The notes under the pieces were generated by a model. That model was not told where the DNA came from. It saw only the letters and a program-made list of their open reading frames with translations, and searched no databases. A DNA stretch of 64,000 nucleotides, taken from sequence record PZ452578.1. One strand, given 5' to 3'. This document shows positions 1,371 to 4,127 of the stretch, one piece after another. A program made the translations under genes and the position numbers. This DNA comes from a phage. How positions within the stretch are numbered: position 1 is the first letter of the stretch; each line of letters begins with the position of its first letter.

Positions 1371-1520
1371 TTACTGCATGACTGTGATAACTGTCATGAT
1401 AACACGTTGAATTCCGAACGCAAGAAGACCTCCTGCTACGGCTGGAACAACGCCTAAACCCGCTAGTAAAATGCTACCAGATACTAATGCAGCGCTTGTA
1501 ATACCTATGAATGGACTCAT
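1371..1520 (-). CDS. small hydrophobic protein (49 aa)
   Basis: Own translation MSPFIGITSAALVSGSILLAGLGVVPAVAGG...; start overlaps gp52 stop (ATGA); below ORF-track size cutoff. Confidence 0.45.
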   Translation of the reverse strand: MSPFIGITSAALVSGSILLAGLGVVPAVAGGLLAFGIQRVIMTVITVMQ

Positions 1521-2845
1521 TTGATTTCCTCTAAATCTTTGGTGTATTCTGTAACTACATCAGTAGTTTTCCAATATTCGTTTTCTTCTTTTTTGGCTTT
1601 AGCTTCTTCAGCAAGTTTCTTCGCTTCATCGGAAGTCATATGAAAAATATTCATTCCAACTAGTTTATCAACATAAGAAGAATACATATCGATTTTCGAA
1701 AGTTCTTCGGTCAGTTCTTTACGAGTTTTACCCTGTACAACGATTTCACCTGAAATTACTTTCTTAATGAAATGTGCCTTGGCAAAGGCTAAACGAAAAG
1801 CTGATTCAGTTTCTTTAATTTTGTTATCAATTCGTTTTTGGACATAAGTTTTACGAACTTCAACAAAGTCTTTAATTAAATCAACTACGTTATCGTAAAC
1901 TTGTAGTTTTCCTTTCTCATTAATAACCGTAATATTCTGAGAACGACGTTCAATCAATCCGAAGTCTTTCATAATTTTTGCATGGCGTTCTTCTTCGTTA
2001 TCGCTCAAAGAGTATTCTTTGCGGAATTTAACTTTGAAGCCAAAACCATGCTCACCACAAGCATCATCCCATGTAATGAAGCCTTTATCTTCAAGCGGGT
2101 CTAAGATTTTACTCACATAAGTTTCACGATCATACTTATACGGAATCTCAGTGATATGCATTTGAGTTCGTGAAGTAAACTTATATGTTCCACGAATTTC
2201 ATATTGACCGTCAATCTCAACGACTTCACCACGAAATTCTGGGAATTCTACCTTTGGTTTAGTTACTTTCTTTCCTTGAAGAGCTTGTAATACAGCTTTC
2301 TTGACAGAAGAAACACTATGAGGAAGAATGTAAGTTGCATAACCAGTTGCAATACCGGAAACGCCATTAAGAAGAACAGTAGGAATAATAGGCAAATAGA
2401 AAGCAGGCGGAATATGTTCTTTATCTTGATGTACCGGAGCATATTCAGTATCTTTATATACGTTATAGAAATTTTTACTTACACGAGCAAAAATATAACG
2501 ACTTGCCGCTGCCTTTTGGACAGTACGAGAACCAAAGTTTCCTTGACCGTCTAACAAAGGAAAGTTATTATTCCAAGTATTAGCCATCAAAGCCCCCGCA
2601 TCTTGTGCAGAGTTTTCACCATGATGATATCCAAGGTCCGCTACACCGCCTGCGATAGAAGCGAGTTTGTGAAACTTATCTTTATTTCCTCGTGCCAAAT
2701 CAAGAGCTCGAGCAATAACAAATCGTTGAACTGGCTTAAATCCGTCAATCATATTTGGGATAGCACGATTTTCAACCGTGTACATAGCATAAGCCAGTGC
2801 TTCATTATCAATGATACTTTTTAAATCGCGATTATTCAGTTGCAT
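1517..2845 (-). CDS. 52: DNA topoisomerase II medium subunit gp52 (GyrA-like)
   Basis: ORF track 442 aa; matches T4 gp52 length and N-terminus as recalled. Confidence 0.9.
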   Translation of the reverse strand: MQLNNRDLKSIIDNEALAYAMYTVENRAIPNMIDGFKPVQRFVIARALDLARGNKDKFHKLASIAGGVADLGYHHGENSAQDAGALMANTWNNNFPLLDGQGNFGSRTVQKAAASRYIFARVSKNFYNVYKDTEYAPVHQDKEHIPPAFYLPIIPTVLLNGVSGIATGYATYILPHSVSSVKKAVLQALQGKKVTKPKVEFPEFRGEVVEIDGQYEIRGTYKFTSRTQMHITEIPYKYDRETYVSKILDPLEDKGFITWDDACGEHGFGFKVKFRKEYSLSDNEEERHAKIMKDFGLIERRSQNITVINEKGKLQVYDNVVDLIKDFVEVRKTYVQKRIDNKIKETESAFRLAFAKAHFIKKVISGEIVVQGKTRKELTEELSKIDMYSSYVDKLVGMNIFHMTSDEAKKLAEEAKAKKEENEYWKTTDVVTEYTKDLEEIK

Positions 2846-2982
2846 AAATTTACCATACTAGTGAATGTAGTGCCATAATAACATCAGAAATGAAAAGCAC
2901 GACTTGAATTAATCCGAACATTACTCCATAATATAGTGCTACCAATAAAGTAGCAAGGGCTAATGAATAGCCCAAGATTTTC

Positions 2983-3141
2983 TTAATCATTAGTAGATAA
3001 CAACACAAATGTTAAATATGCACACATACCCTGGGCTAAAGCTTGTGAAAACACACTGCTAGCATCGATACAGATAGTTAAAACACATGCTACTATCCAA
3101 CAAATAAATGAAATAACTCCTAATAATTTTGCGATATTCAT
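2983..3141 (-). CDS. small membrane protein (52 aa; internal ATG with GGAG RBS)
   Basis: ORF track 62 aa ORF; GGAG 8 nt upstream of internal ATG at 3141; hydrophobic. Confidence 0.5.
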   Translation of the reverse strand: MNIAKLLGVISFICWIVACVLTICIDASSVFSQALAQGMCAYLTFVLLSTND

Positions 3142-3151
3142 AATATTCTCC

Positions 3152-3307
3152 TCAACTATTTTTAGAACCAATGTACGCGAATAATGATAAAATCGCTAAT
3201 ACGCCCTGAGCTGATGCTTGCAAAAATACTGAAGTTTCTCCAGTTATTACTGTTCCGATGCATAAAAAGAACCAACAGAAAAAGGCTATACCGTGAACAA
3301 ATTTCAT
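3152..3307 (-). CDS. small membrane protein (51 aa), paralog of the 2983..3141 product
   Basis: Own translation MKFVHGIAFFCWFFLCIGTVITGETSVFLQASAQG...; AGGA RBS; similar to neighbour. Confidence 0.45.
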   Translation of the reverse strand: MKFVHGIAFFCWFFLCIGTVITGETSVFLQASAQGVLAILSLFAYIGSKNS

Positions 3308-3319
3308 ATTTTCCTCACT

Positions 3320-3335
3320 GGCGTCCGAAGACGCC
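3320..3335 (-). other. Stable RNA hairpin with UUCG tetraloop directly upstream of an RBS (no U-tract)
   Basis: Inverted repeat ggcgtc-cgaa-gacgcc on plus strand. Confidence 0.5.
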
Positions 3336-3394
3336 TTTGGTTTTAAGATTGTTACGATAGAACTGCATCACATGTTCGTTATGGAAATTACTCA

Positions 3395-3853
3395 TTAATA
3401 TGCCTGCAAAACAAATTTAAAGTTATCAGCCAACATACGGTTCATTTCTTCAAGTGTTTGATACTCAGAATGATGATTACGAGTAAACGCCAAAGCTAAC
3501 TGACCTTTTCCAAATCCCGTCGTCAGAGGTTTCATCTTAGAAGCAGGCAGATAAAATACTGTGTATGGAACATTGTTATTTGCAATAGTACGTGCAAGCT
3601 GAGACCGACGTTGACGAATATGACTTAGAACTGCACTGAATCCTTGCTTAGAACGCTGATTACCTACATAAAATCGTGCTGACACACATGGATTACTAAA
3701 TGGACGACCATCTAATTTACTTACTAAAAAGTAAAATCCAGGTTTAGATAAAATATCTTTATGCGGAGTTCCCAAAAACCACTCACCACCCTTGATTGTA
3801 CCAATAACAGTAGCGCCTGCGTTGTTCAGATCAGTAACAGTCATGTATTTCAT
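3395..3853 (-). CDS. ndd: Ndd nucleoid disruption protein
   Basis: ORF track ORF; internal start [18 protein letters not shown] gives ~152 aa matching T4 Ndd as recalled. Confidence 0.8.
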
Positions 3854-3911
3854 ATTAATTTCCTCTAAATTATTTTCTACTCCATGGCCGCATGAATACG
3901 CGGCCATTAAA

Positions 3912-4127
3912 TTAATCGTCGCAGTCGACGCTCAATTCCCAAAACTCTTCTACAGTATAAGTTTCAGTATCATTTTCAATACAGAAACGTTCATTACTGT
4001 TATTTGCTAAAGTAGCATTAACTGTCGGTTTCTCGCTAGTGCTCTTAAGAGGTGAAATACGAATTAACTGATCACCGTTATCTAAACAGAAAATTTCACC
4101 AACTTTTACATCTTTAAAACTTTTCAT
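3912..4127 (-). CDS. hypothetical protein (71 aa)
   Basis: ORF track. Confidence 0.55.

Follow-up and report, generated by a model that had tools for sequence, protein, structure and literature searches.

Two diverged Ac-type membrane peptides in tandem at the ac locus of a T4-type phage, adjacent to a CUUCGG hairpin at the 3' end of stp

Gene organization of the locus

The window analysed here is a 64,000-nt stretch of a phage genome (record PZ452578.1), in which positions 2,983 to 3,335 hold two adjacent ORFs for small hydrophobic peptides and a UUCG hairpin. The locus is of the Tequatrovirus type: a 651-nt stretch shows 100% nucleotide identity to Escherichia phages ECML-134 and ADUt, and the same stretch matches 565 records, mostly from Tequatrovirus. 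In several of the matching records, both small ORFs are labelled "acridine resistance". Every gene between positions 600 and 9100 of the window lies on the minus strand, and the features of the region, from upstream to downstream in the direction of transcription, are as follows.

9116-6939, minus strand: rIIA, from the ORF list
6927-5989, minus strand: rIIB, from the ORF list
between rIIB and ndd, minus strand: denB.1 and denB, then a series of tiny hydrophobic ORFs
3395..3853, minus strand: ndd, encoding the nucleoid disruption protein (ORF upstream of stp; Ndd annotation in ADUt and T4)
3315..3395, minus strand: stp, 26 aa, the product of which inhibits type Ic restriction and activates PrrC; its codons 21-26 hold the hairpin (Pfam PF08133 Nuclease_act, E=2e-21; phrog_6763; T4 annotation)
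3320..3335, minus strand: CUUCGG-type hairpin GGCGUC-UUCG-GACGCC with six pairs, inside the 3' end of stp (folding)
3313..3316, minus strand: Shine-Dalgarno (SD) site GAGG of copy 1, overlapping the stp UGA, 5 nt from the AUG (sequence)
3152..3307, minus strand: copy 1, a B-type Ac paralogue of 51 aa (ORF, phrog_2501, AlphaFold2 model)
3148..3153, minus strand: SD site GAGGAG of copy 2, containing GGAG and overlapping the stop codon of copy 1, 6 nt from the AUG (sequence)
2983..3141, minus strand: copy 2, an A-type Ac of 52 aa counted from the ATG (T4 ac orthologue; phrog_2501)
2850..2990, minus strand: gene 52.1, a 46-aa hydrophobic protein with a DUF7396 domain (Pfam PF24129, E=3.5e-23; T4 annotation; translation)
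1517..2845, minus strand: gene 52, topoisomerase II medium subunit, 442 aa, downstream of the peptide cluster (ORF, annotations)
after gene 52, minus strand: motA.1 and motA

The order of transcription is thus ndd, stp, copy 1, copy 2, 52.1 and 52. The initial annotation gave the coordinates and sequences of the two peptides correctly, and both ORFs are present on the minus strand. It placed them downstream of gene 52, however, whereas they lie upstream of it in the direction of transcription, with 52.1 (2990-2850) in between; the last 8 nt of copy 2 are also the first 8 nt of 52.1. No MotA box was found within 3.7 kb upstream of the peptides, suggesting that they are presumably expressed from upstream early promoters as part of a polycistronic RNA. 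A generic promoter scan at the locus gave no enrichment over shuffled sequences, and no Rfam family was detected over positions 2700-4100.

Identity of the two peptides

Copy 1 begins with MKFVHGIAFFCWFF (3307-3152, minus strand) and copy 2 with MNIAKLLGVISFICW (3141-2983, minus strand). Both peptides are strongly hydrophobic (GRAVY 1.15 and 1.42), and in a single BLASTP comparison they are 43% identical over 40 aa (E=6e-10). In addition, both match phrog_2501 over its full length, copy 1 with E=4.9e-26 (residues 1-50 of 50) and copy 2 with E=3.7e-25 (residues 1-51), and this is the sole PHROGs family matched by the peptides. These results agree with the initial description of a pair of adjacent, paralogous small membrane peptides in a T4-like phage, each with its own ribosome-binding site, and the SD sites of both copies are strong.

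In T4, the interval from stp to 52.1 holds one ac gene, of 51 aa. In the alignment with the T4 locus, copy 2 is distinguished from T4 Ac only by one inserted Thr codon near the C-terminus, and it shares with T4 ac both the position between stp and 52.1 and the 8-nt overlap with 52.1. The variant with this inserted Thr is reported to behave like the wild type in PP01 (10.1101/2025.06.30.662393). Judged by this alignment, copy 2 is the orthologue of T4 ac, the gene for acridine (acriflavine) sensitivity, which is known as pr in T2. The initial annotation overlooked this classical locus, although copy 2 is, residue for residue, T4 Ac save for a one-residue indel.

Relative to T4, which has one ac copy where two are found here, copy 1 and a 10-nt spacer constitute an extra module of 166 nt. 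Copy 1 resembles T4 Ac in family profile, length, predicted two-helix fold and SVFxQAxAQG core, but is only 43% identical to it, with saturated synonymous divergence. Similarly, copies 1 and 2 share 54% nucleotide identity with a dS of ~3, and this saturation of synonymous sites indicates an old divergence rather than a recent duplication. On these sequence comparisons, copy 1 is a second, anciently diverged Ac lineage, here called B-type, with the lineage of T4 Ac as A-type. Both peptides also have the attributes of phrog_2501 in sequence and, for copy 1, in model, namely a hydrophobic two-helix peptide of ~50 aa with the SVFxQAxAQG core, encoded on the early strand between stp (or ndd) and 52.1/52 in the order found in T4, RB51, RB33, Mosigvirus and Jiaodavirus. 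The locus is the ac locus of a T4-type phage.

Family, conserved core and predicted fold

When 1.84 billion representatives were searched exhaustively with a profile, only six small proteins were returned, and a word-index search gave only 7 clusters. The Ac family is confined to Tevenvirinae, with the Mosigvirus and Jiaodavirus members at the same genomic position. Neither peptide had a match above noise in Pfam, NCBIfam or PDB sequences. A precomputed label, PF26944, is attached to two related clusters; it was not reproduced by the Pfam search.

The core common to family members is TGE(T/S)SVFxQAxAQG. Residues S26, V27, F28, Q30, A33, Q34 and G35 (copy 1 numbering) are invariant in the alignment, and Q30, Q34 and G35 are unchanged across genera. 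Both copies carry the Gly of the AQG motif, which corresponds to G38 of T4 Ac. The AlphaFold2 model of copy 1 comprises a helix over residues 2-22, a GETS turn and a second helix over residues 27-50, with a mean pLDDT of 78 obtained from a small alignment, and it agrees with the two-helix ESMFold model reported for T4 Ac (10.1101/2025.06.30.662393). Copy 1 is therefore predicted to be a membrane hairpin of ~50 aa with a helix-turn-helix layout. In this model, S26, Q30 and Q34 are spaced at i, i+4 and i+8 and would line one face of helix 2; together with the Gly, these residues of SVFxQAxAQG would make up its conserved polar face, with S or T at the first position. Basic residues at both termini and an acidic residue in the turn suggest, by the positive-inside rule, a hairpin with the N-terminus and the C-terminus both inside.

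Distribution of the two lineages and origin of the tandem

The A-type, which is nearly invariant, is found in 463 phage records, mostly at an identity of at least 95%. The B-type, represented by copy 1, occurs at an identity of at least 95% in 48 records and at 60-90% in ~47 more. T4 lacks this type. RB51, RB33 and wV7 have no other ac gene, and their alleles (annotated 'ac' by homology) are 71-78% identical to copy 1. As in our phage, the B-type genes of RB51, RB33 and wV7 have the stp hairpin and an identical SD site directly in front of them. However, their sole ac ends in KND and overlaps 52.1, whereas copy 1 has KNS as its last residues and is separated from the A-type gene by a 10-nt spacer that brings a new SD site. 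Public labels for the second Ac lineage are inconsistent, reading either "hypothetical" or "acridine resistance".

A query restricted to the junction between copy 1 and copy 2 was fully covered in 51 records, and the whole locus was likewise covered in 51, indicating that the B-A tandem occurs in ~9% of sequenced relatives (51 of ~565). The doubt raised initially, that the second ORF might lack conservation or a ribosome-binding site in relatives, is answered by these 51 tandem records, in which both ORFs and both SD sites are conserved. T4_ev151 also carries a tandem, with a B copy that is 88% identical to copy 1 at the amino-acid level and still open, and with the SD site and spacer of copy 2 conserved. 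The 10 nucleotide differences of this B copy all fall within codons 3-19, which points to a recombination mosaic; REP4 carries another mosaic ac allele. The spacer before copy 2 resembles the stp-ac junction of single-copy genes, AG(T)TGAGGA(A/G)AATAT (shuffle p=0.015), suggesting that the ribosome-binding site was part of the unit that underwent duplication or joining. A match in vB_EcoM-101117BS1 that was 166 nt longer was considered as a third Ac copy and rejected, because the extra DNA lies between ndd and stp and encodes an unrelated hydrophobic peptide of 57 aa.

No discussion of a paralogue or duplication of ac was found in the literature searched. A recent preprint on ac used BLASTN, reporting matches of 93-100% identity only, and mentions neither a paralogue nor a duplication (10.1101/2025.06.30.662393). 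What appears modestly new is the B-type lineage described here from sequence, together with its pairing with the A-type as a heterotypic tandem in ~9% of relatives and the cassette-like variation in the content of its slot.

Variability of the slot between stp and 52.1

The gene content directly after stp differs among related phages, as follows.

Ac-A alone: 15 loci
Ac-B then Ac-A: 7 loci
Ac-B alone: 3 loci
an unrelated 53-aa hydrophobic ORF alone: 2 loci
the 53-aa ORF plus Ac-B (REP4): 1 locus
a 54-aa ORF related to the 53-aa ORF (L047): 1 locus

The same hairpin and SD site precede every one of these cassettes. With an unchanged hairpin and SD site in front of differing cassettes, the interval from stp to 52.1 behaves as a cassette site, variable in content between borders that are conserved. 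A further-reaching possibility, which we regard as doubtful, is that this slot is a dedicated cassette-exchange site, bordered by the stp hairpin and SD site on one side and by the start of 52.1 on the other, that swaps and stacks tiny membrane peptides, and that the two Ac lineages either hit different inner-membrane targets (for example, efflux pumps or their variants across Enterobacteriaceae) or form a heterodimer. If this were true, the tandem would broaden the range over which the phage manipulates its hosts and would not be redundant.

Modular shuffling in T4-type phages is known to be mediated by PeSL (promoter-early stem-loop) cassettes (PMC2839356, PMC4122927). The present slot resembles these in that small accessory ORFs are exchanged, gained or lost among close relatives at a site flanked by a conserved stem-loop and a neighbouring expression signal. 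However, PeSL elements contain an early sigma-70-type promoter, whereas here the stem-loop is followed by 12 nt with an SD site, and no promoter-like site was found in these 12 nt between the hairpin and the AUG of copy 1. Because the stem-loop lacks such an early promoter, it is not a PeSL by definition.

Proposed function of the Ac peptides

In T4, ac is non-essential, and its loss or a G38R substitution makes the phage acriflavine-resistant, while E. coli expressing Ac is sensitised to acriflavine and ampicillin (10.1101/2025.06.30.662393). From these phenotypes the authors of that study propose that Ac blocks AcrAB-TolC efflux; older work, as summarised there, regarded increased uptake as the cause of the Ac effect (10.1101/2025.06.30.662393). 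A 2026 PNAS paper restates the efflux interpretation as an assumption. The experimental phenotype of Ac is limited to acridine sensitivity and drug accumulation, and the effect on acridine sensitivity has been demonstrated for the A-type of T4 and T2 only (10.1101/2025.06.30.662393).

By analogy with this work on T4, the Ac peptides encoded here would insert into the inner membrane early in infection, where the conserved Q/Q/G face of helix 2 may act on a host membrane component. This action would cause acridines and similar cationic drugs to accumulate in the cell, the proposed route being a block of AcrAB-TolC efflux. The tandem would then provide two diverged versions of one drug-accumulation activity. 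A host counterpart of similar size is AcrZ, a 49-aa inner-membrane protein of E. coli with a single transmembrane helix, which binds AcrB and tunes substrate export. Ac is comparable to AcrZ as a very small inner-membrane protein with a proposed role as a modulator of AcrAB-TolC. However, AcrZ is a host protein with one helix, whereas Ac is a two-helix phage peptide for which a block of export is proposed, and we know of no sequence relationship between the two.

An alternative scenario is that the Ac peptides form pores or leaks, as viroporin-like oligomers in which the paralogues may co-assemble, and thereby raise the permeability of the envelope to cationic dyes with no inhibition of a pump. 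The classical work tied ac to dye uptake after an early, energy-dependent membrane change (summarised in 10.1101/2025.06.30.662393), the polar stripe S26, Q30 and Q34 on a hydrophobic helix would suit such a role, and sensitisation to ampicillin is compatible with general leakiness. However, viral titres and host growth are reported to be unaffected by Ac when no drug is present, and the preprint authors prefer pump blockage (10.1101/2025.06.30.662393), so that we consider pore formation possible but on the unlikely side. The peptides might also serve in superinfection exclusion, as the initial annotation proposed, or in some other envelope function, with acridine sensitivity as a mere side effect. 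Acridine sensitivity is a cost to the phage and therefore cannot be the selected function, and the region from ndd to 52 is full of tiny hydrophobic ORFs that are gained and lost, as is typical of host-interaction accessory genes. However, the peptides match phrog_2501 only, with no similarity to other families, and no exclusion phenotype for ac was found in the literature consulted. The phenotypes tied to Ac by experiment are acridine sensitivity and drug accumulation (10.1101/2025.06.30.662393), and exclusion, for which we found no evidence, seems improbable as the primary role.

Copy 1 might instead be a functionless, redundant duplicate on its way to loss, in which case the pair would be a transient product of unequal recombination between differing ac alleles. 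One copy suffices for most relatives (~460 records with the A-type), the spacer looks as if copied from the stp-ac junction, consistent with unequal crossing-over, and the mosaic alleles of T4_ev151 and REP4 point to frequent recombination within the gene. However, the ORF and SD site of copy 1 are intact in 51 of 51 tandem records, the B copy of T4_ev151 has diverged to 88% amino-acid identity yet remains open, several phages, including RB51, RB33 and wV7, have the B-type as their sole ac, and dN/dS is below 1 (0.18-0.68 among B-type alleles, from small counts). From this pattern of conservation, copy 1 is probably functional, and decay of a redundant duplicate appears very unlikely. Ac-type action at the inner membrane by both peptides is the reading we prefer.

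Natural phages with the A-type only, with the B-type only, with both, or with neither (the 53-aa ORF in the slot) form a ready allelic series. This series could be used to test the AcrAB-TolC block and to ask why phages retain a drug-sensitising gene, which has some relevance to the pairing of phages with antibiotics that are efflux substrates.

Structure and class of the stp hairpin

The hairpin covers stp codons 21-26, which specify the residues G V F G R Q at the C-terminus of the 26-aa product. Its stability amounts to -10 to -11.5 kcal/mol, with z=-4.3 for the isolated 16-mer, and in a 37-nt context it accounts for 94% of the ensemble. Its 3' end is separated by 2 nt from the stp UGA, by 3 nt from the SD site and by 12 nt from the AUG of copy 1. 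The initial description of a very stable hairpin immediately before the first ribosome-binding site therefore holds, but the element lies within stp codons and is not a non-coding leader of the peptide genes. Its supposed connection with the peptide pair does not hold either, as the hairpin belongs to the 3' end of stp, is kept whatever cassette follows, and is one of 12 such elements in the window.

In the window, UUCG-loop hairpins with stems of at least 6 bp number 12, against 1.3 expected, and are found exclusively on the minus strand (12 versus 0 on the plus strand). For ten of the 12 CUUCGG hairpins, the start is no more than 4 nt from a stop codon upstream, and the one at 5991-5974 has the same layout as the stp element, with a stem followed by an SD site and an AUG. 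The CUUCGG hairpin class was first found in T4 mRNA (PMC4371310, summarising Tuerk et al. 1988). The stp hairpin has the attributes of this class, including a UUCG loop closed by a C:G pair, exceptional stability, a location on the transcribed (mRNA) strand at a cistron boundary, and over-representation, with many copies per genome. It differs from the T4 hairpins in lying inside a coding sequence, at the end of stp, whereas the usual site is just past a stop codon, and in its GGCGUC stem, the common type being AAGGGC.

A role of the hairpin as a terminator or attenuator, or as a translational mask, controlling the peptide pair is conceivable, given that a G+C-rich stem stands directly 5' of the ribosome-binding site and that the plus-strand reading is flagged as terminator-like owing to a T-rich tail. 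However, on the minus strand, which is the transcribed one, the sequence after the stem is AGUGAGGAAAAUAUG, which lacks a U-tract and has 1 T in 10 nt. In the scan for intrinsic terminators, the minus-strand tail (AGUGAGGAAA, 1 T in 10 nt) did not qualify and only the plus-strand reading passed; its terminator-like appearance arises because Lys-Thr-Lys codons give a T-rich tail. Since all genes lie on the minus strand, a plus-strand terminator would have no obvious transcript to stop. The SD site and AUG of copy 1 are unpaired in the minimum-free-energy and centroid structures and in 94% of the ensemble, which argues against masking. Control of the peptide pair by either route is thus highly improbable.

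The locus is largely explained, because the peptides are T4 Ac and a diverged copy of it and the hairpin is an ordinary T4 CUUCGG hairpin in stp. We consider the explanation as a whole, combining the identity as the ac locus, an Ac-type action at the membrane and a hairpin that is a separate boundary element, to be probable. For T4 biology, the outcome is mainly a tidier annotation, with one peptide assigned to Ac and the other to a second Ac lineage.

Conservation of the hairpin and a possible RNA-level role

The conservation of the hairpin was assessed in stp loci sampled with a degenerate pattern of the Stp N-terminus, independent of the hairpin, which gave 43 loci including the earlier ones; in IMG/VR, a profile-based scan yielded 5 loci and the degenerate stp pattern 28 more. 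The hairpin is kept in 32 of 33 stp loci of the Tequatrovirus type. Within this lineage (32 loci, 15 distinct stp sequences), the stem codons are GGC GTC TTC GGA CGC with one exception, FriedrichZschokke, in which an R25S change introduces a mismatch and halves the stability (-5.7 kcal/mol). The 5 third-codon positions of the stem are all invariant, compared with 8 of 18 that vary elsewhere in stp (hypergeometric p ~0.09). A frequent change from CAG to UAA at the end of the stem retains a G-U pair, with a stability of -9.3 kcal/mol. In a second stp lineage (10 loci), the residues G-V-F-G are kept with the codons GGA/GGG GTG TTT GGA and no hairpin is formed, and stp shares an ATGA overlap with an unrelated gene downstream. 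Between the two lineages, fixed synonymous differences affect 3 of 4 stem codons and 4 of 18 codons elsewhere (p ~0.08); as 3 of 4 rather than the expected 4 of 4 stem codons differ, this test is only suggestive.

The activity of Stp maps to its N-proximal 18 residues, and deletion of the last 8 codons causes only a moderate reduction (PMC3014915). Evidence for selection on the RNA structure itself is only suggestive. Together with the enrichment of the hairpin class and the partly dispensable tail of Stp, however, the codon tests make an RNA-level role likely, though not proven. We favour a role in RNA stability or processing, in which the hairpin would mark the boundary between the ndd-stp message and the small-peptide cassette that follows, and would do so from C-terminal codons of minor importance to Stp activity. 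The hairpin would then be a clear case of a micro-gene that carries an RNA element in its dispensable tail. On the other hand, ribosomes must melt the hairpin in each pass of stp translation, which counts against a role for it.

The hairpin may alternatively be a coding by-product with no RNA-level role, arising from the codons that specify G-V-F-G-R in the conserved Stp tail. This is in line with the conservation of GVFG in the hairpin-less lineage, with tests of extra constraint that reach only p ~0.08-0.09, and with the natural mismatch variant in FriedrichZschokke. It would leave unaccounted for, however, a class of hairpins that is enriched about nine-fold, strictly strand-specific in the window and located at cistron ends, as well as the dispensability of much of the Stp tail for protein function (PMC3014915). 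We therefore hold a by-product to be the less likely reading, albeit a serious one, and a boundary role of the hairpin in the RNA to be the better candidate. The latter is also consistent with the G-U pairing kept when CAG changes to UAA at the stem end, and with the hairpin of L047, which persists despite changed flanking codons.

Translational signals within the tandem

The Shine-Dalgarno (SD) sequence of the A-type Ac gene, copy 2, is GAGGAG (3148-3153, minus strand) and includes GGAG, the motif of the RegB endoribonuclease, whereas the SD behind the stp hairpin reads GAGGAA (3313-3316, minus strand), a difference through which copy 1 and copy 2 could be shut off differently. Downstream, the start of 52.1 lies within the end of copy 2 (8-nt overlap, 2983-2990, minus strand) and has no SD, while gene 52 begins 4 nt after the 52.1 stop (2846-2849, minus strand) with no obvious SD. 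This arrangement suggests translational coupling to the upstream peptide genes for 52.1 and perhaps also for gene 52.

CUUCGG-type hairpins in the window

Besides the stp hairpin, the minus strand of the window carries 11 hairpins of the CUUCGG type; their stems measure 6-9 bp, and most have the form AAGGGC-UUCG-GCCCUU.

CUUCGG-type hairpins other than that of stp
60514-60495, minus, hairpin
46785-46770, minus, hairpin
44421-44402, minus, hairpin
43151-43132, minus, hairpin
37127-37106, minus, hairpin
34955-34938, minus, hairpin
28334-28315, minus, hairpin within a 114-aa ORF
22101-22080, minus, hairpin
11272-11255, minus, hairpin
5991-5974, minus, hairpin from the rIIB end to denB.1, SD directly after
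5762-5747, minus, hairpin

Nearly all start at most 4 nt from the upstream stop codon; some are terminator-like, with a U-tract, and others have an SD directly after the stem, as at 5991-5974. One hairpin, ATAGGAGC-UUCG-GCUCCUAU, is followed at once by a MotA-box match, ATTGCTTTA (44421-44393, minus strand), and this layout of stem-loop plus putative middle promoter recalls the promoter-early stem-loop (PeSL) modules of T4-type phages.

On the plus strand (3320-3345), the terminator scan picks up the stp hairpin, which in this orientation has TTTGGTTTTA directly downstream. Although it could stop antisense transcription, the terminator-like appearance is probably a coincidence of the Lys-Thr-Lys codons of Stp, because there is no plus-strand gene near 3320-3345.

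Variation of the locus among relatives

Among the stp/ac loci sampled from related phages and metagenome contigs (L numbers, own coordinates), small ORFs around stp are optional. vB_EcoM-101117BS1 (L017, 356-529) encodes a 57-aa hydrophobic ORF (MKALFVMGYLLVLALF...) between ndd and stp, present in this one Tequatrovirus, absent from the window and T4, and homologous to an ORF at the stp position in Klebsiella Jiaodaviruses (L008 and L009, 737-910). The ac slot can hold a hydrophobic ORF of 53/54 aa that is unrelated to Ac, carries a GVW.P motif (MIILIFIELIMAIVCSVCFF...) and is preceded by the same stp hairpin and SD as Ac; it replaces Ac in L020, L022 and L047 (89-253) and is followed by B-type Ac in REP4 (L007, 510-671).

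The stp gene itself also varies. In a divergent lineage (L026-L030, L033, L035, L036, L039 and L045), Stp ends in KTKGVFGK or GVFGG, G-V-F-G being encoded by different codons without the hairpin, and stp has an ATGA overlap with a different downstream gene (MKITDIEA...). FriedrichZschokke (Bas41; L002, 1056-1136) carries the Stp changes H5Y and R25S, the latter with loss of one hairpin pair. H5Y falls within the residue 4-14 cluster in which suppressor mutations abolish PrrC activation (PMC3014915), and this stp may be a natural non-activating allele. In the 1.1-kb metagenome contig L034, the 3' part of stp is replaced, both the hairpin and the normal stop are missing, and the stp ORF, 59 aa long, reads across a variant of A-type Ac (MNITKIIGIISMICW...). 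In front of this variant lies the GAGGAGAATATT spacer, found elsewhere only between tandem copies.

Start codon of ndd

An in-frame ATG 18 codons upstream of ndd (3854-3907, minus strand) gives a 170-aa ORF in the window, compared with 152 aa as annotated in ADUt and 151 aa in T4. The annotated ndd start varies between records, RB5 and RB33 having the 170-aa form.
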